A stretch of 64,000 nt of DNA from Acidobacteriota bacterium (GTDB taxonomy: Bacteria > Acidobacteriota > UBA6911 > RPQK01 > JAJDTT01): positions 4,480,001-4,544,000 of the forward strand of contig OZ242374.1 in assembly GCA_965209055.1 (NCBI GenBank), written 5' to 3'. The notes beneath the pieces were generated by a model. That model saw nothing but the letters and a program-made list of their open reading frames with translations, had not been told where the DNA came from and did not search any database. Below are positions 15,121-50,252 of this stretch, piece after piece; position 1 is the stretch's first letter, and each line of letters begins with the position of its first letter. Made by a program: the position numbers and the translations under genes.

Positions 15121-15131
15121 GAATAGGAGGG

Positions 15132-15254: not shown

Positions 15255-15269
15255 GGCAACAAACAGGCA
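15255..15269 (+). repeat. Putative integrase arm-type site (left)
   Basis: GGCAACAAACAGGCA, identical to 17791-17805; internally tandem (ACAGGCA). Confidence 0.7.
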
Positions 15270-15393
15270 GCCGAATCGGTTCCTGACAGCCGCCCCGCCC
15301 TTTTTTCCCCTTCCGGTGCCTGGCTCAGAGCCCTTATCAGTTAGGCTTTGCTGACCGTTTGGCTCCACCGCAGGACTCAGCCTGAGGCCGAAG

Positions 15394-15621: not shown

Positions 15622-15831
15622 TCGAGATGACCACTCTCGGCCGCCGCAAAGATTTTTGGAGACTCGTTTCGGGTGTGCGTCAAGGGGTCTCGCGCCCGAT
15701 CCGGGAGTGTGAATGGGACATGGGGGGTGGATTCACAAAAAGCGGTCCCGGTGATTCACACCTCCGCTTTCCCCGATCGTTTTTCCTTTCAGTCAGTTAC
15801 GGCCCCCTACCCCCGGACGCCGGCGCCCGCA

Positions 15832-15959
15832 CGGGGAGATCGGAGGTGGACGGGAGCGACCCCCCCTTTTTGCTGCCCGGTGCGGGCGCGGGGGTGTTGC
15901 GCGATTCACATCTGCGCAACACCCCCTGGGGGGGTCGCTCCCGTCTCAATTATCCTTGC
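15832..15959 (+). other. Conserved branched stem-loop element, copy 1 (candidate oriT, ssDNA origin or ncRNA)
   Basis: Outer stem GACGGGAGCGACCCCCCC/GGGGGGGTCGCTCCCGTC enclosing two hairpins, followed by TATCCTTGC; covarying homolog at 28762-28886. Confidence 0.7.
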
Positions 15960-15999
15960 AGGAAGGCCCGGAGGAAGACCGTGGACCGGGTGGACCTGT

Positions 16000-16386
16000 C
16001 CCCCCAAACCCCCCAGTGGCGCCAGAACCCCTGGCGGCTCACATTGCCGCCAGTGAACCTGACGCTCGTCGCGGGTGGGCCAGCCCCCCCGAACCCCCCG
16101 GATGCGAAGAGACACATACCAACTGAAAATCCCTTCCAGAGAGCGCCGAGGCCCTGGGTTCGAGCCTCCCCACCGTGTGGAAAATCAGAGATTTCCCACA
16201 GGGTGCGTCGTTTTGCCGACCCTACAATCAGCGCCCCCCACCAAAGAAAGTCTGCTCCCGGCTGGAAGCCGTCCGAGACCGCGCGAGGGACCCATTCCTA
16301 TGGGACGCGACAAACAGGAGCGCGTGAAAAAGGGTCAGGCAGGGTGAGCCTGACTCTTTGAGGGCGCCACTGGGGGGTCTGGGGGG
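16000..16386. repeat. 24-bp inverted repeat pair in the non-coding core of the element
   Basis: CCCCCCAAACCCCCCAGTGGCGCC (16000-16023) vs GGCGCCACTGGGGGGTCTGGGGGG (16363-16386), 1 mismatch. Confidence 0.7.
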
Positions 16387-16744
16387 AAAGGTTCCCCCCG
16401 GTCCGTCATCCGTTCCGGCTGGCCGGCCTCGCGGACCAGGACGTCACCGGCCCGCCGTTGGAGGACCTCGACCACGGTCGCGGTCCAGGTCTCTTGGCCC
16501 CGCGTCGTGATCGGGATGGAGCCGCCGAGAAGGCGCTCGGGGAGCTTGCCGGTGGCCGCAAGGCAGGACGAACTCCAGGAGCCCTCTTCGAGCTTGTAGG
16601 GACTCCACGCCGACGATACGGAGCTTTCGCAGGTGTTTTGCCATCGACACCGGAGAGGTTGGACAGGGGCCGTGCTGGCGGCCATGGACAGGTGGTACGA
16701 TTCGCCCCATGGCGAAGAACCCGGATCCGGAAAGGAGGAGATGC

Positions 16745-17956: not shown

Positions 17957-18021
17957 AAGTGCATAGGGGGACTCCGTCCCCCTGCCCCCCCTGGTCGGCG
18001 ACAGGAAAGTCGCCGCTCCCT
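17914..18021. repeat. Right part of the interrupted REP/REPIN-like repeat
   Basis: GGGGGACTCCGTCCCCC...TCGGCGACAGGAAAGTCGCCGCTCC matches the right part of the 8302-8414 copy. Confidence 0.8.
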
Positions 18022-27418: not shown

Positions 27419-28549
27419 TCAATCCCCCGTCTGGGCCGGCTCTTCGGGATAGCGAAGATGCCAGGCACACCGGCCACAGCAGGTCTTGCCCAGACGATCG
27501 AAGATTCCGCCGTGGTGGTGCAGTTCCGGATGCCGGTCGTTGGCCCGGCAGAGAGGCCATCTCCGGCCGTCCGCCTCGTGGTAGCCGGCAAACGAGGGAC
27601 AGTCCTCCCGGACCACGCCGTCACCGTCCTGTGGAAGATCGATGCGATCGGGCAGTTCCGCCGGTCCCCGGCGCCAGGCCCGCAGCATGCCGGCTCCCTT
27701 GGCCAGGGCATCGGCGGCCAGATCGCCGTTTGCGGCATCGGCCGGCCGCAAGACGAAGCAATCGGGATCGTCGGCCATGATGGTGGCCATGAACCGGCGG
27801 AAGACGCGGGCCCGGATCAACCCCGAGTCGCTGCGTCCGACCTTGCCGGTGGTCATGATCCCCGAGGCCCGGACCACGTCCTGCATGATCCCGGGAAAAT
27901 CGTACTGGATCCGCTTTCCCGTGGCGCAGTAGGAGAGATGGCGGACCTCGGGATGGTAGTAGCCCAGGTAGCCCACCTCCAGGAGGTCCTCGTAGTAGTG
28001 CCAGAGCGTGATGGTGTCGACTCCGACTCCCAGGATGACGATGCAACCGTCCCACTCCACCACTTTCTCGAACGGATTCCCCCGGCCGCACGGCGTGGGG
28101 CACTCCCGCTGTCCCCGCAGGGCATCCCTCCGCCGGGCCCCGTTGGCGATCCAGGAGTGGGTGGGATGGCAGCCTCGCAGGCGGCCGGGGCGTTGGAGAG
28201 CGGCGTTGGGGATCGCCCCCTCCCGGCTGGCCCACTGGCTGGGGCAGAAGTCCTGCGGGCAGACCCCGCGGCAGTCCGGGAGGGCCATATGCTCGGTCCA
28301 GGCGCCTCCCGTGAAGGCCGGTGTCAACAAGGTCCCCTCCGGTCCCATGGCCTCCAGGAAGGCCTCCACCACCGTCGCCGCACCTCCCTCGACCCATCCC
28401 AGGCGGCTCAGGGAGCTGTGCAGCATGACGCAGTCCCCTTTTCGCACCCCGAGCCGAGTGAGATCCTGCGTCAAGCGTTTCCTGGTGATGCTTCGGGGCG
28501 AAGAGGGGATGTTGAGAGAGGTCTCTGCCACTGGCTGCGAGAATGTCAC
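27419..28549 (-). CDS. AAC(3)/YokD-family N-acetyltransferase with Cys-rich extension
   Basis: LGVRKGDCVMLHSSLSRLGWVEGGA, GTLLTPAFT, HPTHSW, LGVG...TLWHYYE; start uncertain. Confidence 0.85.
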   Translation of the reverse strand: MTFSQPVAETSLNIPSSPRSITRKRLTQDLTRLGVRKGDCVMLHSSLSRLGWVEGGAATVVEAFLEAMGPEGTLLTPAFTGGAWTEHMALPDCRGVCPQDFCPSQWASREGAIPNAALQRPGRLRGCHPTHSWIANGARRRDALRGQRECPTPCGRGNPFEKVVEWDGCIVILGVGVDTITLWHYYEDLLEVGYLGYYHPEVRHLSYCATGKRIQYDFPGIMQDVVRASGIMTTGKVGRSDSGLIRARVFRRFMATIMADDPDCFVLRPADAANGDLAADALAKGAGMLRAWRRGPAELPDRIDLPQDGDGVVREDCPSFAGYHEADGRRWPLCRANDRHPELHHHGGIFDRLGKTCCGRCAWHLRYPEEPAQTGD

Positions 28550-28761
28550 AGCACCCGAAACGGATCAAGACGTCTCGGATCTGAGGATTCCTCTATATTG
28601 TGGCCCCAAGCAAGCAGCGCAACAGGGACTGGTCCAACTACGAGCCCATTGAGATCCGAATGACGAGCGTTGTCGTTGGTGACAACATATGGCATGCGCA
28701 CAAGGACACGCCCCATCGGATGGATTCGGGCGGCACGGATATCGGGTCCGCCCGCGCCGAT

Positions 28762-28886
28762 CGGGGAAATCGGAGGTGGACGGGAGCGCCCCCCTTTTCG
28801 CTGCCCGGATCGGGCACGGCGGCGTTGCGCAACTTACCTTTGCGCAACGCCGCCTGGGGGGGCGCTCCCGTCCCATCAATCCTTGC
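28762..28886 (+). other. Conserved branched stem-loop element, copy 2 (candidate oriT, ssDNA origin or ncRNA)
   Basis: Homologous to 15832-15959 with compensatory stem changes; ends in AATCCTTGC. Confidence 0.7.
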
Positions 28887-29016
28887 GGACTGTTTCCCTA
28901 AAGCCCATAAACCATTCTCTATAATAGAGTTATGAGATTTCCACCACCGCTCTTCCCCCCATTCTTTCCACCGGGATGAATCGGATGTCTTTGGCCCTTC
29001 GTGGCCGTGAACGGAC
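28885..29016 (+). repeat. Left 132-bp inverted repeat
   Basis: GCGGACTGTTTC...CCATTCTCTATAATAGAGTTATGA...CCATTCTTTCCACCGGGA...TTCGTGGCCGTGAACGGAC. Confidence 0.9.
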
Positions 29017-29419
29017 GTAACCGTTCGGTCAAGCCGTGGAGATCGACTTCCTGAGCCGGCCCTGCGGCCTCGCGCTCAAAGAGAGACAAACACCTGACGA
29101 AGGGCCACCTCTCCACCTCCAACGGGGTGGAGGCACAGACCGGATAATGTGCCCCATGGTGTCAGAACGATGCGGGTGTCAGAACGATGCGGTCGAATCG
29201 CGTGCCGTACAAAGATTTTGCGGCCGACGATCACCTGCCGCTATCCTTTCCCACGGAGATCTTACTGCCGCGAAGAGTGGTTCAAGCCCGACAGCAACCC
29301 AACGGGAATTGATCACTGCGGCGAGGATGCCGACCGACCTCTCTTCCACGGCTTGACCGAACGGTTACCCTTGGACTCCATGGACGAGTTTCGAGCCTCA
29401 ACTCGAAACCAAGCCGCCT

Positions 29420-29625
29420 AGCGTGGGAGTCGGTGAAGCGCCACCGAAGGCGCGAATTGGATCCGGAAAGCCATCGAGCAGGATCATGCCATGGCCCTGC
29501 TTGCGCTCCGTTACTTTGACGGCCAGGGACTCGAAAAAGCCGCCGCCGTGGCCGAGAGGTGGGTGCGCAAGGCCGCACGACAAGGCAATACCTTCGCTTC
29601 TGACCTTATCGGTCTCGGGAACCTA
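29420..29625 (+). pseudogene. Degraded Sel1-repeat protein
   Basis: Manual translation EGANWIRKAIEQDHAMALLALRYFDGQGLEKAAAVAERWVRKAARQGN; in-frame TGA at 29434 and an apparent frameshift upstream. Confidence 0.7.
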
Positions 29626-30045
29626 GATCCGCGATCCGGAAACAAGGGCCAGAGGACGACACCCTGATCCCTGCCCGTGACCCTCTGATATTCGCCCGGT
29701 GGAGCGGTCCGCCGCTGCCCTCTCCTTGCCCGATTTGGTGAGCCCATTGGAGTGAAAAACGAGGCAAGGTTCCTATCCGTCGGGTCGACAACTCCTCCTG
29801 CACTTCGGCCAAAAGGTTTTCCATCGCATCATTAAATACTGTCGGGAGGCCCCTCGTTACCTGGAGGAATAGACCTGGATGCCCGCTCACTCCCTAAGAA
29901 TTTCCTATCCTAGCGAACAAAGATCCGCGACTTTCTTTCTGGCGGCGCCCTTGGGTTCGAGTTTGCGGGTCTCGTCGGAGCCAACTACAGCACTGGGGCG
30001 ATTCTCTCGATTCCCGCCAGGGACTTCTCAGCCCCCTTATAGCGT

Positions 30046-30381
30046 GTGAATTGGAATCGCATCAGTTCGAGGTCCCTGATCGTCATCGGCGTGGTCGCCT
30101 TCATCGTCTGCTTATTGGGTTTCTTTGGGGCCATCTTCAAAGTTCCCTTTCTCGGGTCCGGCATTTGGGTTGCCGGCATCACTCTGAGCGCAATCTGGAC
30201 CCGGGACGCCATTCTATGCCTACTGGCAGAGAAGGCGGCATGTCAAGCAAATGTCCTCACTGCGGAGAAGCACCTGCGTAAGGTTCGGATGTTGCAAAAG
30301 AAGGACAGAGCGATCAGGTGGGAGTACGAACTGGGCCGAGATGTCGGATGCAAAAAAGGGAAATCCCATTGGTTGTCCTGA
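30046..30381 (+). CDS. Small membrane protein, hypothetical
   Basis: Two hydrophobic segments in a 111-aa ORF. Confidence 0.45.
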   Translation: MNWNRISSRSLIVIGVVAFIVCLLGFFGAIFKVPFLGSGIWVAGITLSAIWTRDAILCLLAEKAACQANVLTAEKHLRKVRMLQKKDRAIRWEYELGRDVGCKKGKSHWLS

Positions 30382-30560
30382 TACCAGCCCCGATCGTTCT
30401 GGTCGGAGACGCTAAATCCACGGTTCAGAACATCGGCGAAGAGATGCTGATCGCCCCCATTTGCAGGATGTCGCATGGCTACAGCACTACGGTTGTGGTC
30501 AGAGATGCCGCGCTGCTGCTGAACTTCCTCGGATTCTGAAGGGATAAAAAGAAGGTTGCC

Positions 30561-31298
30561 ATGAAGTCAATGTCCGTTTTCGTATCCGTACTCCTGTTGT
30601 TAGTCCCCGCCACCAGTCTCGCCCAGGAGAAGGAGCTTGTCGCGCCGATATTCACGCAGGTCGATCCGTTGCGCTCTTGGCTCTCCATTTCGGAATCTTC
30701 GGGCCGGTATGTCGTAGTGGAAGTGCGGGAGTACACGAACGCGGGAGAGAGAGCGCACGAGAGGAGCTACTTTCTCGACCCCAATACAATTGTCGCTTAT
30801 TCCGCATACGCTGATTTGGGCATTGGTCCCGTCGCGAAGAACGGATGGGCACGGGTGACTTTTCCGGACGACCGAGACCTGCATATCGTCAGTACAACAT
30901 GGGACTACAGTCGGCGCGGTAGGTACGCTGAGTCCCAGCTTGTAGAACCTGCCCCGGCGTTCCGCCTGTTCGCCAAGTCAACGTCCGAAGGAGAAACAGG
31001 GATCGCCATCGTCAACCCGACGTCGGAGACGCAGACAGTCTCCGTGGCCTTTCACGAGTATCACCCGCGCTACAAGAACGTGACAGAGAAGGAGTGGGAA
31101 ATTGAAGCCGGGAACAGATTGAGCATGTTCCTTTCAGAATGGCTTCCCCTGGAAGAATTCGAAGGCGACGAGCACTGGTTCACTGGCATCGTGCGAGTCC
31201 AAGGGGAAACCGTCATCGCTGTGGGAGCTCTCACTTACTCACTGGCGACGGAGTGGTTTGAGACGGTTCTTGTTACAGAGGAGAACGGCGATGAGTAA
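30561..31298 (+). CDS. Secreted hypothetical protein (beta-sandwich), paralog A
   Basis: Signal MKSMSVFV..SLA; ETGIAIVNPT...RLSMFLSE...GIVRVQGETVIAVGAL. Confidence 0.75.
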   Translation: MKSMSVFVSVLLLLVPATSLAQEKELVAPIFTQVDPLRSWLSISESSGRYVVVEVREYTNAGERAHERSYFLDPNTIVAYSAYADLGIGPVAKNGWARVTFPDDRDLHIVSTTWDYSRRGRYAESQLVEPAPAFRLFAKSTSEGETGIAIVNPTSETQTVSVAFHEYHPRYKNVTEKEWEIEAGNRLSMFLSEWLPLEEFEGDEHWFTGIVRVQGETVIAVGALTYSLATEWFETVLVTEENGDE

Positions 31299-31308
31299 GG
31301 ATACTGCC

Positions 31309-32136
31309 GTGAAGTCAATATCTGCGTTCGTGCTCGGTCTTTTCCTGCTCCCGTTGCTTCTCGGCGCCGGAAACAACAACCCGCTCACAACGACACCCCA
31401 GCCGCTCAAGGTTCTGATTGCCCCGATCTACCCTCAGACCTGGCCCCTGAGGACCTCTGTCACCCTGTTCGAAGCTCGTGGCCGAGCGATGGGGTTCTAC
31501 CTCCATGAGTTCACTGAAACGGGACATTACGTCGTGGGAGGAGGATTCCGTCACTTTATCGGCGCCAATTCCAGCGAGTCCTTATCCTTCTTCCATGACT
31601 TCTCAGGAAGGACAGTTGGAAACGGCGGCTGGGCGCGGTACACGTATCCAAGCCAGGATCGGGAGCTTCGGGGATTCGTCAATATTACGAAGCACAAAGA
31701 AGGCGAGCCGGAGTTTACGGTCCGGACGAGAGCGGTGGAACCAGCCAAGGGCTTTCGACTCCTGGCCTATCGTGGGGGCAACGAGGAGACGGCTATCTCA
31801 ATCGTCAACCCTACGGAAGAGGAGCAAGGAGTCACGGTCCGATTGTACGGCGGATGGACCATTCCGATCTCGAACGCAAGACCGGATCCCCGGTTCGTGG
31901 AAAAGTCTTGGACGCTTGGCCCTATGACCCGCCTGAGCCGGTTCCTCTCAGAGTTGCTTCCTATTGAAGGGTATGACGATTCGACAGGCAGAACTGACGA
32001 TAGGCCAGGCAGAACCCACGGTATAGTCCACGTCCAAGGCGAAACTCAGATTGCGGTGGGTGCTCTGGGATTTGATCACGAGACCGGCGAGTTTTGGGGA
32101 TTGCCCGTATTTGCCGAACCACCAGAGCACCCTTGA
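31309..32136 (+). CDS. Secreted hypothetical protein, paralog B
   Basis: GTG 31309 gives MKSISAFV, parallel to paralog A; ETAISIVNPT...RLSRFLSE...GIVHVQGETQIAVGAL. Confidence 0.75.
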   Translation: MKSISAFVLGLFLLPLLLGAGNNNPLTTTPQPLKVLIAPIYPQTWPLRTSVTLFEARGRAMGFYLHEFTETGHYVVGGGFRHFIGANSSESLSFFHDFSGRTVGNGGWARYTYPSQDRELRGFVNITKHKEGEPEFTVRTRAVEPAKGFRLLAYRGGNEETAISIVNPTEEEQGVTVRLYGGWTIPISNARPDPRFVEKSWTLGPMTRLSRFLSELLPIEGYDDSTGRTDDRPGRTHGIVHVQGETQIAVGALGFDHETGEFWGLPVFAEPPEHP

Positions 32137-32291
32137 GATTCCTTCCTCAGAAAATCCAGCAATTGGTTGCTACGGAGGTCGCGTCAACCCGTCGTGCAGG
32201 TGCAGGACCAGAGCCGGCAGACTTTTCCTCGCGTTGATACTCCAGATGCCCCGTGTCCAAGGATCCGCCGTCTCTAGCTCTACTCGTCAGG

Positions 32292-35200
32292 TCATCGGAG
32301 AACCGGGACCATGGGCAATGTGGTGAAGATCCGGTTATCGGCATCCATCTCCAGGGCCACTCCCGTGAAGGCTCCACCCGGCGGCGCAGTGCAGAGGACC
32401 GAGCCGGTAAAATCGGAGGTATCAGCGTCCTTGAAGAGTTCGTCGATGAAATGGGCCACTTGACCGCCGGCGTCCAGATCGATCTCCGTCTCGGTCAACA
32501 TTCGGCCGTTCTGCATCAGTGCGCAGGTCAACGTCATGGTTTCCGGTTCCAGATTGCGGACCGCAGCTCCGGTGTTGATCCCGTTCCCCTGGCGCCGGAC
32601 GGGGAACATCGCGGCCGCGACGGGTAGGCTGGCGCCAATCCCGGCCATCCCCACGCTTGGGACGTCTAAGCGCAGGACCCCGCCAACGGGTCCGTCAGAC
32701 TCCACCCGCACGGATCCCGTCACCAATTCCCCTTGCCCATGGGTCGAGATCGTGAGCTCGCTCAGAGCCAACATTTCCGCCCCGATGCTCAGTGCTCCGT
32801 CCTCCCGGACCTCCAGGTCTCCCACCACTTCCACCACCGATTCCGCGTCAATTTGGTCGCCCTGCCGATCATAGAAGTAGACGGAGGGCCGGATCGGATC
32901 GGCCCCCACGTTCACTAACACCAACTCGGATCGAATGGACGATCCGTTCCCGAAATGCGCGAAGACCAAAGTCCCTTCCCCGCTCCCGTCCGCCAAAGGC
33001 TCCACCGGCACCATCGGCAAGGTTGTGAAGATCCGATTTTCGGTATCCATTACCACGGCCACTCCCGTGAATAGCTTGCCGCGTGGTGAGGTACAGCGCA
33101 CCGAACCAACGAAGTCGGACGTTTCGTTCTGGGTGAACAATTCGTCGATGAACCGGGCCGCTTGCCCGTCACGCGTCAGTGAGATCTGCGTCTCTTCCAG
33201 CACCGTGCCCGCTTGCAGCAACTGACACTGCACCCTCATCCATTCGTCTCCCCGGCTGCGGATCGCGACCGCCGTGCGGATCCCTCCCGCCTGGTTTCGA
33301 GCCGGGAAGATGGCGTCCCGAACGCGCGGACTCGCTCCCACCCCGGCCACCCCGATGTCCGGATTGACATAGCGGAGGACCCCGCCGAGGGGACCTTCGG
33401 ACTCCACCCGCACCGATCCGGACACAATCGTCCGTCGAGGATGGGTCGAGATCGTGCGCTCCCCCAGAGGCTCGATGCCCGTCCGAACCCTCAGCGTGCC
33501 GTCCTCCTGGACCTCCAGATCCTCCCTCATCTCCACCAGCCATCCGCCGGACAGGAGATTCCCTCCACGGTCCAGGAAGGAGACGACCGGACGGATCGGC
33601 TCGTCGCCCACGTTCACCAACACCAATTCGGACGTAATGGACTCCCCATTGGCGAAATGGGCAAAGTGCAGATTCGGCATCTCCAGAACGTTCAGCGGCA
33701 AGTGGGGCGACTTGACCAGAGTGAGTTCCGTATCAATGGAGCTCGGCATCGCGGGCAACTCGCCGATATCCACGAAGACGGCAGAGGCCGGGCCGGGGTT
33801 CCGGGAAACGGTGAACGTGGCGCTATACACGCTGCCCCTGGGGATATTGATGTGGCTCGAACCGCCGTCAAGGACGCCGTTGACGACGTTGATCGGCAAC
33901 ACGATCTCAAAGAGGGCCCCGGAGTCGGCCCGGGCTCTGAACCGGCCTTCCCCAGCGAATTCCAGGGAAATCATTGTGGTCAGTTGGTTCCAGTTGTCAG
34001 ACAGAGAAAGTCTTTGCAGCGAGGGCAACCCGGAAAAGATCCCCTCCGGCAGTGCCGTCAGGCGATTGGTAGACAACCAAAGCGATTCCAACGAGGACAG
34101 CCCGGAAAAGATCCCCTCCTGCAGTGCGGTCAGGTGATTGTCAGACAACCCAAGCGCTTTCAAAGAGGACAGCCCCGCGAAAACCCCGGCCGACAGCGTC
34201 GTCAGGTCGTTACGAGTCAGGTAGAGCACTTCCAGAGAAAACAGCCCGGCGAAGACTCCGACCGGGAGTGTCGTCAGGTCGTTATCGCCCAGGTAGAGCT
34301 CTTTCAGAGAGGACAGCTCACCGAAGATCCCAGCCGGCAGCGTCCTCAGGTCGTTATTTCTCAGGTAGAGCTCTTCCAGCGAGGACAGCCCAGCGAAGGT
34401 CCCGACTGGAAGCGACCTCAGCTCGTTCGAACGCAGATAGAGCACTCGCAGTGAGGACAAACCGGCGAAGACCCCGGCCGGCAGCGTCCTCAGGTCGTTG
34501 TTTCTCAAGTAGAGCTCTTCCAGCGAGGACAGCTCGTAGAAGACCCCAGCCGGTAGCGTCGTCAGATGGTTGTTGTCCAGATAGAGCTGTTTCAAGGACG
34601 ACAGTCCAGAGAAGGCCCCGGCCGACAGCGTCGTCAGGCCGTTGTCATCCAGAGAGAGCCATTCCAGCGAGGACAGCCCGGAGAAGACCCCGATCGGCAA
34701 CGGCGTAAGACGGTTGCCACCCAGAGAGAGCCCTTCCAGCGAAGACAACCCGGAGAAGACGCCGACCGGGAGTGTCGTCAGGCCGTTGCCACCAAGATAG
34801 AGCCGTTCCAGCGAGGACAACCCCGAGAAGACTCCGACCGGCAGCGTCGTCAAGCCGTTGCCACCCAGAGAAAGATCTTCCAGCGAGGACAGCTCGGAGA
34901 AGACGCCGGTCGGCAACGTCGTCAAGCTGTTTCTAACCAGAGTGAGATCTTCCAGCGAGGACAACCCGGAGAAGACGCCGACCGGGAGTGTCGTCAGGTC
35001 GGTATCGCCCAGGGAGAGCTCTTTCAGAGAGGACAGCTCACCGAAGATCCCGGCCGACAGCGTCGTCAGTCGATTGTCTGTTAAATCGAGCCCTTCCAGC
35101 GTGGACAGTTCCGCGAAAATCCCGGCCGGCAGTGTCGTTAATCGATTGCCGCTCAGATCGAGACTTTTCAACGACGACAACCCGGAGAAGATCCCGGCCG

Positions 35201-35939
35201 GTAGCTCAGTCAATCGGTTGAAGGCCAGGTGGAGCGACTCCAGCGACGACAGTCCCGCGAAAACCCCAACCGGCAGCGTCGTCACGTCGCTGACTCTCAA
35301 TTTGAGCCATTTCAGCGTGGGCAATCCGACGAAGAGGTCATCTGGCAGAGGACCCCCGATGTACAGAGTGAGCGATTGGAGCGAGGTCAGTCCCGAGAAA
35401 AGCTCGCCGGCCGGGGGAGCCATATCGTTGTAGTGCAGGGACAGCCCGAGCGATTGGAGCGAGGTGAGTCCCGAGAAGATCCCGGCCGGCAGGGTGGTCA
35501 GTGGATTGCGGCCCAGCGCGAGCGTTTCCAGGGAGGAAAGCCCGTGGAAGAGGCCCGCCGGAAGGGTAGTCAGTTTGTTGGCATGTAACTGAAGTCCTTC
35601 CAACGAGGACAGTCCGCTAAAATCCCCCGCCTTTAACTCTAGAATGGGATTCGGGAGATCGCCGGAGGGAACACCCCATACATCGTACGGACCTGCCAGA
35701 TTGAGGTCACCCTCAATCTCAGCCAGATGTGGCTCCGTCACATCACCGCAATCGTTAACGTCCGGAACCTTCTCCACGATTGCGTCGCGCACTTCCGGTG
35801 TCCGGTCGCAGACGGGGACGATCTGCGCCGTGGCTTTCTCCGGTACGGCCAGCAGAACCAGGCCCAAAGTTACCGTTAGCACCGAGGTCGTGGATCGCAA
35901 TCGGGGAAGCGGTGCAATCTTCAGTATGTGTACTGGCAT
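32292..35939 (-). CDS. Secreted leucine-rich repeat protein with duplicated C-terminal beta domains
   Basis: Signal, Cys N-cap VCDRTPEVRDAIV, about 23 x 24-aa LRRs, two FAHF.NG.SI.SELVLVN domains. Confidence 0.93.
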   Translation of the reverse strand: MPVHILKIAPLPRLRSTTSVLTVTLGLVLLAVPEKATAQIVPVCDRTPEVRDAIVEKVPDVNDCGDVTEPHLAEIEGDLNLAGPYDVWGVPSGDLPNPILELKAGDFSGLSSLEGLQLHANKLTTLPAGLFHGLSSLETLALGRNPLTTLPAGIFSGLTSLQSLGLSLHYNDMAPPAGELFSGLTSLQSLTLYIGGPLPDDLFVGLPTLKWLKLRVSDVTTLPVGVFAGLSSLESLHLAFNRLTELPAGIFSGLSSLKSLDLSGNRLTTLPAGIFAELSTLEGLDLTDNRLTTLSAGIFGELSSLKELSLGDTDLTTLPVGVFSGLSSLEDLTLVRNSLTTLPTGVFSELSSLEDLSLGGNGLTTLPVGVFSGLSSLERLYLGGNGLTTLPVGVFSGLSSLEGLSLGGNRLTPLPIGVFSGLSSLEWLSLDDNGLTTLSAGAFSGLSSLKQLYLDNNHLTTLPAGVFYELSSLEELYLRNNDLRTLPAGVFAGLSSLRVLYLRSNELRSLPVGTFAGLSSLEELYLRNNDLRTLPAGIFGELSSLKELYLGDNDLTTLPVGVFAGLFSLEVLYLTRNDLTTLSAGVFAGLSSLKALGLSDNHLTALQEGIFSGLSSLESLWLSTNRLTALPEGIFSGLPSLQRLSLSDNWNQLTTMISLEFAGEGRFRARADSGALFEIVLPINVVNGVLDGGSSHINIPRGSVYSATFTVSRNPGPASAVFVDIGELPAMPSSIDTELTLVKSPHLPLNVLEMPNLHFAHFANGESITSELVLVNVGDEPIRPVVSFLDRGGNLLSGGWLVEMREDLEVQEDGTLRVRTGIEPLGERTISTHPRRTIVSGSVRVESEGPLGGVLRYVNPDIGVAGVGASPRVRDAIFPARNQAGGIRTAVAIRSRGDEWMRVQCQLLQAGTVLEETQISLTRDGQAARFIDELFTQNETSDFVGSVRCTSPRGKLFTGVAVVMDTENRIFTTLPMVPVEPLADGSGEGTLVFAHFGNGSSIRSELVLVNVGADPIRPSVYFYDRQGDQIDAESVVEVVGDLEVREDGALSIGAEMLALSELTISTHGQGELVTGSVRVESDGPVGGVLRLDVPSVGMAGIGASLPVAAAMFPVRRQGNGINTGAAVRNLEPETMTLTCALMQNGRMLTETEIDLDAGGQVAHFIDELFKDADTSDFTGSVLCTAPPGGAFTGVALEMDADNRIFTTLPMVPVLR
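33990..35640 (-). repeat. 72-bp coding tandem repeat array (LRR units)
   Basis: Consensus TLPxGxFxGLSSLxxLxLxxNxL, about 23 copies counted; boundaries approximate. Confidence 0.9.
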
Positions 35940-36159
35940 CCGAAATGGTTCCTCCAGGCAGATGGATGGCCTTCGACAGTATTCAATGATGCGGGGGAGC
36001 CCCTTCTAGCCGAACCCAACGACGGGACGCAGACTCGACAGATCAACGAGCCGCTCCTCCAGGGATTGGCAGTCTCAGAGAACCCGGGGGCCTGGGGCGT
36101 GCGTAGCCATCTGATCCCTCCCAGAGGGGCATGGAGGAAATAACCCAGACCAGCACTCC

Positions 36160-38062
36160 GTCGAGTTACACTACTCAGCCGCCACCGGCACCGTATGAAA
36201 CCAGTTCGTCGCCCGTGAGTACCCGACTGCGGCCACGGCTTTTGTATGACCTAACCTCATGGCCAGCATCGTCAAGAAGATCATCCGCGGCCACCCCTAC
36301 TACTACGCCCGCGTCTGCAAACGCGTCGATGGCAAGCCCAAGATCGTCTCCCAGACCTATCTCGGCCGCGCCGACAAGATCCTCGAGAAGCTCCGGGCCA
36401 AGCCCGTCCCCGCCCCGCCTCTGGAGGCGGTCGTGCGCGAATTCGGCGCCTCCACCGCTCTGCTCACCCTCGCCCGCCGCTTGCAATTCGTCGAGCACAT
36501 CGACCGCCGTGTCCCCCAGCACGGCTCCGGCCCCTCCGTCGGTCATTACCTGCTCGCCGCCGTCCTCAACCGCTGCCTCGCCCCCGGCTCCAAGGCCAGC
36601 CTCGCCCGCTGGTTCGACTCCACCGCCCTCCCCCGCCTGCTCCCCCTGCGTTCCCGCCAACTGACCAGCCAGCGCTTCTGGGACCACATGCACCGCATCC
36701 CCGTTCCAGCGATCCCCACCATGAAACGGGACATCGTGGCCGCCATGACCCGAGAGTTCGGCCTCGACCGGCGCCAAGTGCTGTTTGACGCCACCAACTT
36801 CTTCACCTACATCGATTCCTTCAACCATCACTCCGAGCTGGCCCAGCGCGGCCACGGCAAGGAGGGCTGCAAGTCGTTGCGCATCATCGGTGTGGCGCTG
36901 CTGGTCACGACTGACTTCCGCCTGCCCCTGCTGCATCGCACCTATCCCGGCAACCGCCCCGACGCGCCGCTGTTCCAGAGCCTCGCCGCCGATTTGGCCC
37001 GGCGCTGCCGCGAGATCGCCGCCGGCGCCGAGACGCTCACGCTGGTCTTCGACAAGGGCAACAACTCGCGGGAGAACCTGAAGTGGGTCGAGCGCAGCCC
37101 GTTCCACTTCATCGGCTCGCTGGTGCCGACCCAGCACCCGGACCTGCTGGCCGTGGAGGCGGACCAGGTGCGCTCGCTGGAGGCCGACGGGTTGCCCGGC
37201 GTGCGCGTCTACCGCACCGACTACGAGGTGTTCGGCATCGAGCGCACGGTGCTGGTGATCTGGAACCAAGCGCTGTTCGACGCCCAGTGCCGGACGCTGC
37301 TGCGGGAGATCGCCAAGCGGCGCCAGCACCTGCGTGCGCTGCAGCGGCAGTTGCGCCGCTGGCGCGACGGCAAGATCCGCGGGGGGCGCAAGCCGGGCGT
37401 GGCCACCACGCGCAAGAAGGTGGACACCTGGCTGCGGGCCCGGCACATGCGGGACCTGTTCGCTGTCCAGGTGCGCGAGGTCCAGGGCCTGCCGAAGGTG
37501 AATTACCGCTTCCAGCGCCACGCCTGGGAGAAGCTGCAGAGCACGCTGCTGGGGAAGACCCTACTGTTCACGGACCAGGCGGATTGGAGTGACGCCGAGC
37601 TGGTGCGCGGCTACCGAGCCCAGCATCAGGTCGAGAGCGCCTTCCGGCAGTTGAAGGACAGCGACTGCATCGCGATCCGGCCGCAATACCACTGGACGGA
37701 TCAGAAGATCGCGGTGCACGTGTTCTGCTGCGTGCTGGCGCTGATGTTGTGCAGTCTGCTGCAGCGGGAACTGAGCCGGCACGGGGTGAAGGGCTCCATC
37801 CCCGGACTGCTGGATGCCCTCGCGGGGATTCGGGAGGTGGACGTGCTGTATCCCGCGCGCCAGGAGGGCGGTGAGCCCGAACTCAGAACGACGCTCTCGC
37901 AGATGACGGAAGAACAGCGCGCGATGTACGACATCCTGGGCCTCGACCGCCACCCGCTCCCACCTCTGACGCAGACCCGTTAGGTCATACGGAAGGGATT
38001 CTCCAAGTCTCTGAAAAAAAGGAACTTATCCGTATTCTGTCGTTCAACATGGTAAACTCGGG
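36160..38062 (+). mobile_element. IS1634-family insertion sequence (ends approximate)
   Basis: Transposase; imperfect ends GTCGAGTTAC.../...GTAAACTCGGG; no clear target duplication. Confidence 0.7.
36259..37983 (+). CDS. IS1634-family DDE transposase
   Basis: MASIVKK...RVDGKPKIVSQTYLG; FDATN (D), VFDKGN (D), YRAQHQVESAFRQLK (E), IRPQYHWTDQKIAVH. Confidence 0.9.
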   Translation: MASIVKKIIRGHPYYYARVCKRVDGKPKIVSQTYLGRADKILEKLRAKPVPAPPLEAVVREFGASTALLTLARRLQFVEHIDRRVPQHGSGPSVGHYLLAAVLNRCLAPGSKASLARWFDSTALPRLLPLRSRQLTSQRFWDHMHRIPVPAIPTMKRDIVAAMTREFGLDRRQVLFDATNFFTYIDSFNHHSELAQRGHGKEGCKSLRIIGVALLVTTDFRLPLLHRTYPGNRPDAPLFQSLAADLARRCREIAAGAETLTLVFDKGNNSRENLKWVERSPFHFIGSLVPTQHPDLLAVEADQVRSLEADGLPGVRVYRTDYEVFGIERTVLVIWNQALFDAQCRTLLREIAKRRQHLRALQRQLRRWRDGKIRGGRKPGVATTRKKVDTWLRARHMRDLFAVQVREVQGLPKVNYRFQRHAWEKLQSTLLGKTLLFTDQADWSDAELVRGYRAQHQVESAFRQLKDSDCIAIRPQYHWTDQKIAVHVFCCVLALMLCSLLQRELSRHGVKGSIPGLLDALAGIREVDVLYPARQEGGEPELRTTLSQMTEEQRAMYDILGLDRHPLPPLTQTR

Positions 38063-38300
38063 CTAGGGAAGTCGCGTCTCACGCGCAGTCGACGGCCAGA
38101 CGGCAACATGCTTCACACATCAGTCAGCCGGAGCCATCTCCGCCGAGGCGAGGAAAGAGGTGAGACTCTCCGCCAGAGGATCGCGCGCATGTTCAGACCT
38201 CCCTTAGATTCATACCATCCGAACTCACCCAATGAGCTGATTGCAGAGAAAAATTCACATTTCCTGATGCGTGTCTGATTTCTCCTGGGAGGTGGGCACT

Positions 38301-38855
38301 ATGAGCAACCTTGCAAGCATACGCAAAAGGCGGTTCCGGACAACGACGGCAGCGGGATTCGTGCCCTCGTTGCTTTTTGCAGGTCTGCCGGGCTGCACCG
38401 CGAGGAACAAGACCGACTGGTCCCAAGTGCGAACCGTCGCCCCAAACACCACGACGGAGGTGCAGGTGTACGAGGGAGTAGCCCCTCACGAGGAGCGGAA
38501 AGTAAAGGGCTGCTTCGTATCGGCTACGACGGACTCATTGACGTTGCAACTCAAGGACGGACGAGCCAGGACGGTTCAGAAGAACGACATTCGGAAGATT
38601 CTGACGCGGCGGCCATTCATGAAACGTTGGCCGGGATGGGCTGCACTGGGGGTCACGGTGTTCGCACTGGCCGTAGTGCCTATGGATTCTGGCGACCATC
38701 GGCTCGTCTCTAAAACACTATTCCATACCTACTAACCCCTCCCGATTACGATCGCATTCTTCATCGGATCTCGAATGAAAGCGATTTGCGAAGTCCAACC
38801 CAAGGCGAGCGGACGCTGGTACCCGAAGGAAGACAATAAGGAGCAGTCCCCATGA
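38301..38855 (+). pseudogene. Lipoprotein paralog with internal TAA (38733-38735)
   Basis: After the TAA the frame continues PLPITIAFFIGSRMKAICEVQP, matching PISALFFYGSRMRGIYEVPP of the next gene, and ends at a TGA overlapping the next ATG. Confidence 0.8.
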
Positions 38856-39379
38856 AACTCGCATCTGTTCTGCTGATCCTGGTCCTTTTGTCGGGCTGTG
38901 GCGGCCCGAAGCGGCACATGCCCACCTGGTCCCGAGTGCAAGCCGTGTCCCCACAGACAAAGACCGAGGTTCGACTGTACAAGGATGAGGCTCTGGAGGG
39001 CAGCAGGAGGGTCGAAGGTCGCTTCCACTCGGCCACGGATGATTTCGTTACGCTGACGCTACCGGATGGGCAGAACCGGACCTTCCAGAAGCAATCCGTG
39101 CGCGAGTTCCTGACCCACCGATCGTTCTGGAGACGATGGCCGGGCTGGGCTGCTTTAGGGATCTTCACCATTCCGCTTTGGTTGGCTCTCCCCATAAGGG
39201 ACGAGGATCCCATGCGCGGTTTGTGGGTTGGCGCAGTTCTCGCAACACCGATTTCGGCCCTATTTTTTTACGGATCCAGGATGCGCGGGATTTACGAGGT
39301 GCCACCCGAGTACAGGACATTACCGCCGGCAGCCAACAAGCCCAATGCTGGGAACAAGCCGGGAAAGAAGCCGCAGTGA
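38852..39379 (+). CDS. Hypothetical lipoprotein with two C-terminal TM segments
   Basis: RBS AAGGAG; lipobox LSGC; shares WS.V..V.P.T.TEV, SAT.D..TL, RWPGWAALG with the upstream paralog. Confidence 0.75.
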   Translation: MKLASVLLILVLLSGCGGPKRHMPTWSRVQAVSPQTKTEVRLYKDEALEGSRRVEGRFHSATDDFVTLTLPDGQNRTFQKQSVREFLTHRSFWRRWPGWAALGIFTIPLWLALPIRDEDPMRGLWVGAVLATPISALFFYGSRMRGIYEVPPEYRTLPPAANKPNAGNKPGKKPQ

Positions 39380-39617
39380 TTGGACGGTTCGACTCAGACA
39401 TCTTGGCGGGTTTTCTATCGTGTATTCGTAGGCGGCGGGAAGTGATGTCGAGTGGACGCCCAGTGGAGTGCTTGGTGTCGCCGTTGTCGGCGCGGGTGTC
39501 AATGGGCGTCGAAAATGTCAGGATCTGAGCGCTGCCCGTGCAGGGTGGAGCGACCGGAGCGGGGCAGCGAGCCGGGATCGGGGGTGTCGCCACGAGGCAA
39601 GCCGGAGTTGCTGACGT

Positions 39618-39749
39618 GTCCGTTCACGGCCACGAAAGGCCAAGGACATCCATTTCGTCCCGGTGGAAAGAATGGTGGAGAGTGCCGCGGCTGAGAATTC
39701 ATAACTCTTTTATAGAGAATGGGTTACGGAATTTATAGAAACAGTCCGC
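39618..39749 (-). repeat. Right 132-bp inverted repeat
   Basis: Reverse complement aligns without gaps to 28885-29016. Confidence 0.9.
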
Positions 39750-39816
39750 TGAAAATTGGGCTAGCTTGCCAGTCGCCTGCGACCTGATCGGCAGTCACCC
39801 CGACGGCATCTACGTG

Positions 39817-40569
39817 TCAGTTCACCGGTTCGATCGACGAGTTGATCCGGCCCAGATGTTCCTCGTAACGGGCGTGGGCCTCCCGGTCCCGCTGCGCCCG
39901 GGAAGAGTGGTAGGCGAAGCCGAGGTTGCGCCGGTGATGGGCAGTGCGATTCGGTCCGGTGCGATGGATCACGTTGACGTGGTGGAGCGAGAGGTCCCCG
40001 GGCTTCAGGTCGAGCGCCACCTCCGGGTAACGGCTGAGGTCCGGCTTCTCCAGCAAGCCCAGGCTCGCCCCCGTGACGCCTGAAGGCTGGTGCGGCAGGA
40101 TCGGAGCGCGGTGCGAGCCCTTCAGGCAGACGATGGTCCCGTTGTCGTCATTGGCTTCATCCAGGGCCAAGGTGACGGCTACGGCCTCCGCCGGATTCCA
40201 GAACTGGTAGGCATTGTCCTGATGATAGGGGAACTCGTAGGTGGCGAAGGGGGCCTTGTCGATGAGCATCACGCCATCCGCCCCGGCCGCCGCGCCGGGA
40301 TAGAGCGCTTCGACCAGGGCGATCAGACGTGGATCCCGTATCAAGCCCGCAAAATAACCGGAGCGTTGGTTGATCCTGAAAACGCACCGCACCGCGCCAC
40401 CGCCGCCATCCTCGTAGTAGGCTTCGCCCGGTTCCAGACCGGAAAGGGACTCCTGCAGGTACCGGCCGAGTTGCCGATCCACCTCAGCCAGCTCCTCTGG
40501 CGAGAAAAATCCGGGAACGACTCCGAACCCGTTCTCGTCGTATTCACGGGCAATCGCATCGTAGTCCAT
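39817..40569 (-). CDS. Phytanoyl-CoA dioxygenase (PhyH) family
   Basis: Start MDYDAIAREYDENGF; PYHQDN, NGTIVCLKGSH, LKPGDLSLHH..IH.TGPN.T...RR. Confidence 0.9.
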   Translation of the reverse strand: MDYDAIAREYDENGFGVVPGFFSPEELAEVDRQLGRYLQESLSGLEPGEAYYEDGGGGAVRCVFRINQRSGYFAGLIRDPRLIALVEALYPGAAAGADGVMLIDKAPFATYEFPYHQDNAYQFWNPAEAVAVTLALDEANDDNGTIVCLKGSHRAPILPHQPSGVTGASLGLLEKPDLSRYPEVALDLKPGDLSLHHVNVIHRTGPNRTAHHRRNLGFAYHSSRAQRDREAHARYEEHLGRINSSIEPVN

Positions 40570-46440: not shown

Positions 46441-47970
46441 TTAGAACTCCATGGGACTGGTCCCGAGCACGAATACACGTTCGACTCCCGCACGCTTGAG
46501 GAGCTTAACCGTGCCCATGATTAAAGTGCCGGAGACTTCATGATCCGGCTCGATTACCACCACGTTTCCAACATCCCTGGATTTTTGGAGAAGACGTTCC
46601 TCGTCCACCAGGGTGTGTCCATGCCAGAGGCTCCCGGAATTGTCGATACGGAGCAGGAGACCCGGCGCTTGCGCGCCCGGTCTGAGGACAAAGTTGATCG
46701 CGATGGTCGTACGTGCCGAAACCGTTTCCCCATCTACCTTGATCGGCTCCCAGCGCCAACTCTTCAATGATTCCAGAGCCGCATTCCGCAAGGCGGGGTG
46801 ACCTTGAACCACTTCTGCCTCCTGCATTGCACCGCTGCTGTCGATGACGACCCGCAAGACGACCAAACCTTCAACCCCAGCCACTTTTGCGACGAGCGGA
46901 TATTCGGGTTCGTCTCGATGGAGCAGATTTCTGGCCATGACATTTCCCGCCACAGGAATCGGAATGGGTTCCTTTACGACAGGTGCTGCCTGCGAGTGGC
47001 GAGCGACGGAAGGCCGTGCCAGCGGCAATGCCGACAGGCTCCACCATCCAGTCACGACCAGCAACCCGAAACAACACGCCAACGAAAGAGCCGTTTTCTT
47101 CTTGGATCGTCTTCTCCCATGGAGTTGGAGCAGCGACCTCACGCGATAGCGCAGTTGGTACTCCTGGAGAAACAGAGGAGCAGGAAGGGAGAACGTGTGA
47201 GTGGCCCGCTTTGCGATTTCAACCAGAGAATGGAGATACGTTTTCCGGGAGCCCAATAGGTGGACGACCCGTTCGTCCACAGCCTGCTCCCGGGTCAACT
47301 GAATCCGGCGAATCAACCAGTGAAAGGCTGGATGAAACCAGAAAAGGGACCGCACGATTTCGTCCACCGTATTCCAGAGCCAGTCCCTTCTCTTCACATG
47401 CAACAGTTCATGGCAGACCACGGCTCTCTGCATCCCCTGCTCCAATTGGCCGAACGATTCGGGGAGGATGATCACCGGCCGCAACCAGCCGAAGGCGACG
47501 GGCCCGGCAACTTCGCCCGACACGCGATATTCCGCGGAGACTCCCAGCTCTTCTTCAAGAACGTGTAGATGCGGCGGTAGAGATTGGCGCGTGGTTCTAC
47601 GCTGTAGGCGGTGGAGCCGGTAGAACCCGACTCCCAGCCAGAGGAAACGGAGCAGCATGCCGGTGACCAGTAGGCCACCCAGCCACGCGTACGGATTGGC
47701 AGAGGTGCTGCCCTGGACCGCCGGCGACGGATTGGCGGTGGCAACCAGTTCCTCGACCAATGGAACGGAAATTGGTTCCGGCACGGCAATTGGCGCCAGC
47801 GGCTGGAGCGCCAATAGCAGGCAGGCGACCATGAGCAGTCGCCAGTAGAGATGCAGGATGCCAGGTGCCCGCAAACGAAAGACCCAGGGGAGAATTCCCC
47901 CGACCAGAATCAGAATTCCTGTCTGAAGACTGTAGAACCAGAGGTTGGACATCCACAGTTCAATGGTCAT
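46441..47970 (-). CDS. M56 (BlaR1-like) peptidase-TonB_C protein with ExbD-like tail
   Basis: GP..FGW.RPVI.LP, CHELLHVKRRD, FWFHP, REQAVDE; PEYPLVAK.AGVEG.V; tail VVVIEPDHEV...LKRAGVERV. Confidence 0.85.
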   Translation of the reverse strand: MTIELWMSNLWFYSLQTGILILVGGILPWVFRLRAPGILHLYWRLLMVACLLLALQPLAPIAVPEPISVPLVEELVATANPSPAVQGSTSANPYAWLGGLLVTGMLLRFLWLGVGFYRLHRLQRRTTRQSLPPHLHVLEEELGVSAEYRVSGEVAGPVAFGWLRPVIILPESFGQLEQGMQRAVVCHELLHVKRRDWLWNTVDEIVRSLFWFHPAFHWLIRRIQLTREQAVDERVVHLLGSRKTYLHSLVEIAKRATHTFSLPAPLFLQEYQLRYRVRSLLQLHGRRRSKKKTALSLACCFGLLVVTGWWSLSALPLARPSVARHSQAAPVVKEPIPIPVAGNVMARNLLHRDEPEYPLVAKVAGVEGLVVLRVVIDSSGAMQEAEVVQGHPALRNAALESLKSWRWEPIKVDGETVSARTTIAINFVLRPGAQAPGLLLRIDNSGSLWHGHTLVDEERLLQKSRDVGNVVVIEPDHEVSGTLIMGTVKLLKRAGVERVFVLGTSPMEF

Positions 47971-50252
47971 TCTTCTCTCTCTGTCATTTCCTCCAGCTCC
48001 CGAAGCTTCCGCCGGAAGTCTTTCATGTCGATTTCTGCCATCTCGTTTCTGGCACGCTTTAGTTCCTTCTGTGCCCATTCAAACCGGCGCCGGAGTTCCT
48101 TCATGTCGATCCCCGCCAACCTGCTTCTGGCACGCTCCAATTCTTTCCGAGCGCTCCCAAGCTGGCGCCGGAGTTCCGTCATGTCGATTGCTGCCATCTC
48201 GCGAATGGCACGGTCCGCTTCCTTCAGCGCACTTTCGAGCTTGGGCCGGATCTGGCTCCGGGTCTGATTTGGAATATTGGGCGATTGCGGAACGAACGCA
48301 TCGTGCGGGAAGCGGACGACGACGGTGGTTTTTACTGGAACGGGTATGCCGTTCAAGAGAAAGGGTTTATAGCGCCATTGGCTGACGGCGCTCGCCGCCG
48401 TGGAGTTCAAGCCGGGATTTCCCTCGCCTCCTCGCAGGACCTCCACATGCTGAACTTCTCCATTCTTGCCGATCACGATGGACAGCATGACCTGACCCGA
48501 TGGACGAGCTTCTTTGAGCTCTGCCGGATACTCAGGTTCAACCCGGTGGATCAGGCGGCTCTCCATGATCCGTCCTCCTACTCGAACCGGTTCCTCGACG
48601 GCTGATTCCGATTTGGGCACACGAAGCAAGACGGCGGTTCTCACTATTATGGGTTTCCCCTGGAAGACATACGGTTCATAACGCCACTGTCTCACTGCAT
48701 CCACGGCGGCAGAATTCAGGCGAGAATCGCCTTTGTCACCCCGAACGACTGTCACCTCCTGAACTTCGCCATTCTTACCAACCACGATGGACAAGATGAT
48801 CAGGCCCAGTGGGCCGTCGCTTTCCAAACCCGACGGAATCTCGGGATCGACCCGGTGGATCAGCCTGTCCGCCATGACATTGGTGCCCACATGAATAGGC
48901 TCATCGACAGTGGGTTCCGGGTGCGGCGATCCATGGGAACTAGTCGTGCCCACTGCCTCCGCGCGTGGCAAACGAAGAAAAACGGTGGTTCTCACCGGAA
49001 CGGGCTTCCCGTCCAGGAGAAACGGCTCATAGCGCCACTGTCTCACCGCATCCGGGACGGCGGAATTCGAGGGGGGATGGGCTTTATCGCCTTGCAAGAT
49101 TTCTACCCGCTGAACTTCTCCATTGCCATCGATGACGATGGACAATATGAACTGAGCCAACGGGCGGGAACTCCCCGCGTGTCCAGGAATCTCCGGATCA
49201 ACCTGGTGGACCAGCTTGTTCGCCATGACGCGACTACCGACTCGAACCGGCTCCCCGGCAGCCGGTTCCTCTTGCGGCATCCGAACTGACGGAGTGGCCG
49301 TCAAAGGCAGTGCAGCCAGAATCCACCATCCGCTTGCCATGAGCAGCGCCACGCACACGCTCCAAAAAACGGTCGATTTAGTCTTGGACATTCGTACCTC
49401 CCGCAATTGGAGCAGGTGCCGCACCCGGCGGCTGAACTGGCATTCCCTAAGAAAAAGTGGAGCGGGCATGGATGCGGCAGAAGTCTTCCACCTTGCGATC
49501 TCTACCAATGAATGAAGGTAAGTCTTCCTCGATCCCAGCAGCGCGACCGCCTGTTCGTCCACGACCTGCTCCCGGGTCAACTGAATTTGACCGATCAGCC
49601 AGTAGAAACCCGGGTGGAACCAGAACACGGTCCGCACCAACTCCTCGAATGCGTTCCAGAACCAGTCTCCCCTCTTCACGTGCAGCAGTTCATGGCAAGC
49701 GACGGCCTTCTGCATTGCCGGCTCCAGTTCGTCGAACGAATCGGGGAAGACGATGACCGGGCGGAACCAACCAAAGGTAATGGGCCCGGTGACCTCGGAC
49801 GACACACGAAACCGGGTAGAAACTCTCATCTCCCCGGTCAGCGGTTGAAGATGCGGGGGCAGGACCAGCCGTCGAGTTCTCCGCCTCAAGCGGTGGAGCC
49901 TGTAGAAGCCGGTCCCCAGCCAGATCAGGCGGAGTAGAATGCCGGCGAGGAAAAGGACCCCCAACACCGGAAATACGTCAGCAGCTTGGTCCGTCCCACT
50001 CACCGTCACCGGAGAAACAGGAAGCGTCAGTTCTTCGGCCAGAGGTACCGGTACGGGATCGGACAAGGGGTCCGGTACTCCAGGTTGGAAACCCAGAAGC
50101 AGACAGACTGCCAGCAGAACCCTCCAGAAAAGGTACAAACTGCGGGGCTCTCGAAGTCGAAGGAATCGGACCAGGAGGCCAGCCGCCAGAATCAGGATTC
50201 CGGTCTGCAGGCTGTAGAACCAGAGATTGGATAACGACAGTTCCAGGCTCAT
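47967..50252 (-). CDS. M56 (BlaR1-like) peptidase with three TonB_C domains and a coiled-coil tail
   Basis: CHELLHVKRGD; three L.H.V(D/E)PE...AV.QWRY.P units; 26-aa IDM repeats. Confidence 0.88.
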   Translation of the reverse strand: MSLELSLSNLWFYSLQTGILILAAGLLVRFLRLREPRSLYLFWRVLLAVCLLLGFQPGVPDPLSDPVPVPLAEELTLPVSPVTVSGTDQAADVFPVLGVLFLAGILLRLIWLGTGFYRLHRLRRRTRRLVLPPHLQPLTGEMRVSTRFRVSSEVTGPITFGWFRPVIVFPDSFDELEPAMQKAVACHELLHVKRGDWFWNAFEELVRTVFWFHPGFYWLIGQIQLTREQVVDEQAVALLGSRKTYLHSLVEIARWKTSAASMPAPLFLRECQFSRRVRHLLQLREVRMSKTKSTVFWSVCVALLMASGWWILAALPLTATPSVRMPQEEPAAGEPVRVGSRVMANKLVHQVDPEIPGHAGSSRPLAQFILSIVIDGNGEVQRVEILQGDKAHPPSNSAVPDAVRQWRYEPFLLDGKPVPVRTTVFLRLPRAEAVGTTSSHGSPHPEPTVDEPIHVGTNVMADRLIHRVDPEIPSGLESDGPLGLIILSIVVGKNGEVQEVTVVRGDKGDSRLNSAAVDAVRQWRYEPYVFQGKPIIVRTAVLLRVPKSESAVEEPVRVGGRIMESRLIHRVEPEYPAELKEARPSGQVMLSIVIGKNGEVQHVEVLRGGEGNPGLNSTAASAVSQWRYKPFLLNGIPVPVKTTVVVRFPHDAFVPQSPNIPNQTRSQIRPKLESALKEADRAIREMAAIDMTELRRQLGSARKELERARSRLAGIDMKELRRRFEWAQKELKRARNEMAEIDMKDFRRKLRELEEMTEREE

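Follow-up and report, generated by a model that had tools for sequence, protein, structure and literature searches.

The 64-kb stretch of DNA analysed here (hereafter the window) belongs to a 6.08-Mb acidobacterial genome (G000; its relatives are denoted G001 and so on), and its longest inverted repeat is formed by positions 28885–29016 on the plus strand and 39618–39749 on the minus strand. The two copies, each of 132 bp, are identical at 109 positions, well above chance expectation, and align without a gap, with a longest exact common block of 19 nt. The preliminary description of the window had reported a 10.9-kb cassette bounded by these ungapped repeats, and the recomputed identity, the conserved blocks within the repeats and the lack of a target duplication flanking the stretch are as given there. 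The word 'bounded' has to be corrected, since the DNA that is absent from relatives with an empty site begins at about 28580–28591, 300 nt to the left of the left repeat.

The locus lies between an aminoglycoside 3-N-acetyltransferase-like gene (AAC) and a PhyH gene. Read from the left, it opens with the left part of an older outer islet (28580–28755, an ORF fragment), which is absent from the empty-site relatives and shared with G008 as far as 28712, followed by a dispersed palindromic module of about 130 nt (28756–28888, plus strand), the usual continuation of which, GAAGG, is missing. The 3' end of the module holds the putative 7-bp crossover core CTTGCGG (28882–28888, plus strand), placed by sister elements that share the core at both ends. 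At the inner edge of the left repeat stands a 352-bp miniature element (29017–29368) with perfect 24-bp terminal repeats, and then a plus-strand reading frame broken by in-frame stops (29380–29668), which looks Sel1-like by eye. Three plus-strand ORFs follow, of 111 aa (30046–30381; hydrophobic, no Pfam family), 245 aa (30561–31298; no Pfam or NCBIfam family) and 292 aa (31258–32136); the last two are 36% paralogues of the same family, and the 245-aa ORF is also paralogous to several island genes. The minus strand encodes a 1215-aa leucine-rich-repeat (LRR) protein (32292–35939), with 92.7% DNA identity to a gene in a sister island at 68–84 kb of the genome. To the right of a putative deletion seam (36239/36240) lies an IS1634-family element (36240–38066, plus strand), the left end of which is truncated in comparison with full copies in relatives; its transposase (36259–37983, plus strand; NF033559, 269 bits, cut-off 100) is unrelated to the repeats. 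Two plus-strand ORFs of 154 aa (38271–38735) and 175 aa (38852–39379; no family match), 48% paralogues of one another, precede the right repeat, which has no miniature element at its inner edge and at the outer end of which lies the putative minus-strand core TCAGCGG (39746–39752). An Rfam scan of 28000–40500 at an E-value of 1 gave zero matches, and thus no known RNA family is present there.

No tyrosine recombinase was found between the repeats: a tblastn search with 11 integrases of the family described below, at an E-value of 0.1, returned nothing, no integrase remnant was detectable within the 10.9-kb stretch and no integrase-side end was found in window positions 20001–45000. The integrase gene at 16709–17956 of the window was considered as the cognate enzyme and rejected, as it belongs to a separate, 26-member family; the element of that family, at 15120–18019, carries a copy of the module. 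An integron attI/attC reading was also dropped, since attC-like ends are absent by eye and the integrase of the family is of the P4 type.

The genome search for the 132-mer that had been proposed in the preliminary description was carried out with nhmmer and returned 18 matches in G000, 13 of them close to full length, another 101 nt long and the remaining four shorter still, with cognate integrase ends found opposite copies. The 28 copies from G000 and its relatives align almost gap-free, in 136 columns of which seven are gapped, so that 'ungapped' describes the family; the absence of indels between the two window repeats, to which attention had been drawn, is real and is a family trait rather than a special property of this pair. 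The 58 tyrosine-recombinase matches in G000 form clusters of 26, 16, 5 and 2 plus singletons, and ten genes of the 16-member family, one of them with an internal stop, have in common a conserved region of 170 nt that precedes the start codon. Nine of these ten integrases point at a facing 132-mer at most 28 kb away, and the 7 bases adjoining the 132-mer are found again, directly repeated, at the integrase end, identical in seven of the nine pairs as read by eye; one of the remaining pairs has a single core mismatch, at the centre, and the other has two to three, also by eye. Among the relatives, a 132-mer lies opposite each of the six integrases that are at least 79% identical and located on unbroken assemblies, and opposite one more in G023. 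The core co-varies at both ends, being CCTACGG in G001 and CCTGCGG in G004 and G023; the cores of the G007 and G008 pairs differ at one position, and in G006, where the integrase is deleted, the core differs more. The domains of the family integrases, including the G008 copy, are the P4-type set Arm-DNA-bind_3, Phage_int_M and Phage_integrase. Given the integrases that face 132-mers and the shared, co-varying cores, the 132-mer is the attachment arm distal to the integrase in a family of P4-type integrase islands, and the left and right repeats of the window are the distal arms of what we call island 1 and island 2, respectively. The earlier statement that the repeats have no cognate enzyme is thus correct for the DNA between them and fails for the genome, in which ten related integrase genes, with ends that match, are located at other places.

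These pairings bear directly on the reading of the stretch as a transposon-like cassette that is non-autonomous, has the 132-bp repeats as its terminal inverted repeats and depends on a transposase for its movement. Such a cassette would have inverted ends of equal length, as found here, and an IS1634 transposase does lie inside; nevertheless, every intact context pairs the repeat with a tyrosine-integrase end and never with a second repeat, the target duplication is absent, the two ends are not sister copies and the IS1634 element has its own ends, by which this reading is largely refuted.

Five islands of the family are inserted in a palindromic MITE-like repeat, in either orientation, and the others at the 3' end of the dispersed 130-nt module, which in the window is the target of the left island. 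Among the 73 module matches scored in G000, 58 are intact, four are occupied by a 132-mer and 11 are unclassified by the pattern used. The core at the 3' end differs among the intact copies both in its sequence and, by a single base, in its length, and this variation perhaps represents footprints of past integration and excision. Many family members have the target module directly behind their own integrase. Loss of the integrase side is common, with 18 arm matches against ten integrase ends in G000.

Inward from the core, the arm shows first an AT-rich block, then a purine-rich tandem pair and lastly four boxes spaced 10 bp apart. The corresponding elements of the left arm, on the plus strand, are a putative IHF-like stretch at 28920–28932, a candidate arm-type pair at 28955–28972 and four 10-bp-phased GG(A/C)(C/T) boxes at 28983–29016; those of the right arm, on the minus strand, are a putative IHF-like stretch at 39702–39714, a candidate arm pair at 39662–39680 and the phased boxes at 39618–39651. 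The pair, the phased boxes and the AT-rich block are predicted to be arm-type, accessory-factor and IHF sites, and the repeats do look like att arms with phased protein-binding sites, as had been suggested, with the proteins themselves assigned by analogy. A profile built from the 66 nt that precede the integrase start was compared with the 28 arms and with 40 dinucleotide shuffles; it lies in the same register, reversed, in all 28 arms and scores above all 40 shuffles in 22 of them, with negative absolute scores, only anchor positions being common to the profile and the arms. Since the arms are related and the absolute scores are negative, the 22 of 28 do not form an independent count and are supporting rather than strong evidence. 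A match to the IHF consensus with at most one mismatch is present in 14 of the 28 arms, 13 of these at one offset, compared with 13% of the shuffles; it is present in only four of the ten integrase ends, and the left arm of the window, with two mismatches, is also below the threshold.

Attachment arms with repeated boxes and an IHF stretch are known from the lambda scheme (PMC4880445), and an arm-site scheme is described for KplE1 (IntS) of Escherichia coli (PMC2951348). The present family resembles the KplE1, P4 and CP4-57 islands in its integrase domains and, as in KplE1-type islands, in having one att region of some 170 nt immediately before the integrase start (PMC2951348), as well as in arms with repeated boxes and a putative IHF-like stretch (PMC2951348, PMC4880445). 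Unlike in the P4 and CP4-57 islands, the targets are dispersed repeats and not tRNA genes, the box sequences were matched to no characterised protein, and the window contains two distal arms only and no integrase. The targeting of a conserved site of other mobile elements by an integrative element is shared with IME_oriT of streptococci, from which the present family differs in integrase and phylum (PMC7563843).

The two arms of the window are 81–83% alike and were placed in separate branches of a tree that is short and weakly supported. The closest copy of the left arm is found in G007 (94%) and that of the right arm in G023 (87%), and the cores CTTGCGG and TCAGCGG match at four of seven positions. 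Judged by these comparisons, the arms come from two different element lineages and are not sister copies. Within the stretch, positions 32211–35970 and 35977–36239 match the intact island at 68–84 kb of the genome with identities of 92.7% and 93.9%, respectively, and 38060–38420 matches two other islands. The homology to the sister island ends at 36239, where the IS1634 element begins already cut, and full IS1634 copies in five relatives extend further left than the window copy; we infer that 36239/36240 is a deletion seam.

The empty-site comparison that had been called for was informative: in six of the eight relatives (G001, G002, G003, G004, G005 and G007) the AAC and PhyH genes are adjacent, and in G006 about 365 nt of other sequence lies between them. 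The preliminary description had named a commonly dispersed repeat together with a cargo syntenic in genomes lacking it as evidence against its own reading; the 132-mer is dispersed, as shown above, and the cargo is absent at the empty sites. In G008, one contig carries the AAC gene, the module, the 132-mer and cargo, and another carries the integrase, the integrase end, the remainder of the module, a 1.1-kb stretch with a weak, below-cut-off match to Abi_alpha, and the PhyH gene. As the two halves are on separate contigs, their linkage is deduced from the flanking genes, and with this linkage across the contig break G008 contains a normal family island at the left site of the window, so that a family integrase is present at the very locus that had been thought to have no enzyme. 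G000 is without the whole integrase side of the island that G008 carries at this site. At the position of the right arm of G000, G008 has an uninterrupted site with five of the seven core bases and the same preceding chromosomal letters, which is likely to be a secondary target for a second, inverted island. When metagenomes were scanned with the PhyH flank, 38 loci came up, all of them at 66% identity or less, and further strains of the locus were not among them.

We favour the interpretation, with a probability of roughly 0.7, that the stretch is the fused relic of two islands that integrated head to head and of which both integrase ends were then deleted. Island 1 entered the 3' end of the dispersed module at 28888, as shown by sister elements and G008, and island 2, in the opposite orientation, would have entered a secondary site about 1.3 kb past the far end of island 1, as G008 suggests. 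One or more deletions, the seam of which is seen and the extent of which is presumed, would afterwards have taken out the two integrase genes together with their integrase-side arms and everything in between, and two near-identical inverted integrase genes lying close together may, speculatively, have favoured this loss. Excision requires one end of each kind in direct orientation. As the remaining ends are of the same kind, excision of the remnant is predicted to fail and the remnant is probably fixed; having neither its own integrase nor one end of each kind, the 10.9-kb stretch is not an intact P4-type island. Against this history, no examined genome shows an intermediate with both integrases, the right target comes from a single genome with a 5/7 match, and a further double-arm stretch in G004, described below, keeps both halves of one target. 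Two related elements inserted head to head had been the second alternative of the preliminary description; the first, a single invertible or trans-mobilised cassette, is disfavoured by repeats that are of the same end type, belong to two lineages and have 7-bp cores differing at three positions.

In fimS and the shufflons, an invertible segment lies between inverted recombination sites, as the present stretch does, and inverted sites give inversion. A working switch of this kind, with the LRR cargo flipped through recombination of the two like arms by integrases acting in trans, could draw on up to ten sister integrase genes in the genome, and both arms retain all of the conserved blocks; the mismatched cores of some sister pairs and of G008 indicate that mismatches may be tolerated. 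The conservation of the blocks is, however, explained by family membership, the cores differ at three of seven positions, there is no adjacent invertase as in fimS and the shufflons, and inspection of the ends reveals neither a promoter nor a gene fusion spanning them. Eight metagenome runs containing the stretch, among them sponge and coral-reef metagenomes, were compared, all as contigs, and in none of them was an opposite-strand joint between an outer edge and the opposite arm, as expected of the second orientation, found; X20 and X22 span the assembled right junction without a difference, and X8 spans the left one. The depth inside the stretch is similar to that of the flanks in X20 and X22, which are one sample and may be the source. 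As contigs drop rare forms, the runs show that the assembled form is present and not that the other form is absent. Overall, a working switch is considered very unlikely. Skip joints from 28500 or 28569 to about 39831 in X20, X22, X12 and X6 were considered as excision and dropped in favour of empty sites of related species, as the intervening letters are replaced or the sides are short, and the long pieces are 4–9% divergent. X20 and X22 also contain an opposite-strand joint, 29368/39617, which is located at the inner edges and would fit paralogous copies.

Returning to two islands that integrated head to head and then decayed, decayed and stacked islands as such are already known, as CIMEs and as products of tandem accretion (PMC5704250). 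CIMEs are likewise described as having lost their integrase, with several islands piled at a hotspot and trimmed by deletion; unlike the present stretch with its like, inverted ends, a CIME retains both attL and attR and remains open to cis-mobilisation (PMC5704250), and because both of its ends are alike the stretch is not a CIME. A limited literature search found no paper on head-to-head islands with a deleted integrase, and none for the arm sequences; recombination between like sites ('bent-L') turned up solely as a reference-list entry. The formerly orphan repeats now have an enzyme family and, if the favoured reading is correct, a history in which hotspot pile-up followed by loss of the integrase ends is one route to the fixation of repeat-targeting islands together with their cargo, such as the LRR gene. 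The 28 natural arm variants with co-varying cores may also serve as material for testing a P4-type integrase that targets dispersed repeats.

The second double-arm stretch is found in G004 (C1:754436–791924, L173–L175), where two facing arms lie 37 kb apart with no integrase between them, two halves of one MITE-like target lie outside the arms, and the two arms fall in different branches. Its cargo comprises, by eye, hydantoinase-like, peptidase-like and transporter-like genes, together with several IS. The same locus is empty in G005 and has a left arm only in G002 and a truncated right arm only in G000. Among the matches listed, double-arm stretches thus number two in ten genomes with arms, a recurrence that fits repeated hotspot insertion and integrase-side loss. 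The single-arm and double-arm forms of this locus in G002, G000 and G004 would also be compatible with recombination between strains or loci with oppositely oriented islands, which would give a chimera with no two-integrase intermediate; the family inserts either way round in its palindromic target, and the left cargo of the window shares 92.7% identity with another of the genome's islands. The seam of the window, however, joins non-homologous DNA at a truncated IS end, a better fit to deletion than to homologous exchange, and the two targets in the window are different sites; an origin as a chimera is therefore regarded as rather unlikely. The two target halves in G004 could mean that double-arm units are made or moved directly. 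Highly doubtful at present is the idea that double-arm stretches are the tyrosine-integrase counterpart of composite transposons, in which like, inverted arms that remain once the integrase is lost are recombined by sister integrases acting in trans, to flip or capture cargo or chromosomal blocks (10.9 kb here and 37 kb in G004); if true, recombination of like arms in trans would be a new way of inverting or capturing DNA.

The 352-bp unit at the inner edge of the left arm (29017–29368) is, from its sequence and that of related copies, an IS66-family MITE favouring the last box of the arm. Its GTAA terminal repeats are shared with elements encoding DDE_Tnp_IS66, and the same 24-bp terminal repeats bound 3.29-kb elements, in records titled Longimicrobiales, that carry a DDE_Tnp_IS66 transposase and a DruA-domain gene. 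The full-length elements have 8–9-bp duplications in seven of eight end pairings, the eighth being an alternative end of one element; the duplication is kept in four of the 11 miniatures examined, and the far-side 8-mer of the window copy is not a duplication. All seven complete miniatures in G000 adjoin a 132-mer, in both orientations, and the 11 copies, including that of the window, sit at an identical 8-mer on the inner side of the arm, with orientations split five and six. The MITE ends in other genomes often follow similar ..GGAC boxes, and together these positions suggest that the MITE prefers integrase arms, as a mobile element exploiting the recombination site of another. No IS66 transposase was found in G000. 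Given the full-length IS66 partners and the duplications, a fim-like switch was dropped as the main reading of the two orientations; flipping of the MITE after insertion is possible. The unit resembles the ISBst12 group of the IS66 family in its GTAA-starting terminal repeats and 8-bp target duplication and in the single DDE_Tnp_IS66 transposase of its full-length partner, and is unlike it in being a non-coding miniature at the inner edge of an att arm in either orientation (PMC12898284). A perfect 17-nt tandem duplication (29157–29190) makes the window copy 352 nt long instead of about 334 nt. The second gene in the full-length elements L041, L047 and L057 has a DruA (PF14236) domain. A form with a single MITE end joined directly to the downstream frame (joint 29036 to 29372) is found at 3152674 of G000 and in five of the eight runs.

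Several further observations concern the family and its surroundings. Nested islands occur at G000:C1:1583520–1610678, where one family member lies within another. An orphan integrase at 3918830 of the genome shares the core of the left arm, but is 590 kb distant and in the wrong order; an orphan integrase end at G000:C1:3905000–3920230 lies beside genes that by eye resemble type I-U/I-G CRISPR–Cas (Cas1 and Cas3-like). An AlpA-type directionality factor gave one match in the genome, far from every arm. In L064, a contig titled Gammaproteobacteria, an arm and MITE are nearly identical to the copy at 1608690 of G000, reflecting either transfer or misbinning. Finally, two neighbouring genes at 46441–50252 of the window share long segments and contain internal repeats of 78, 309 and 351 nt.
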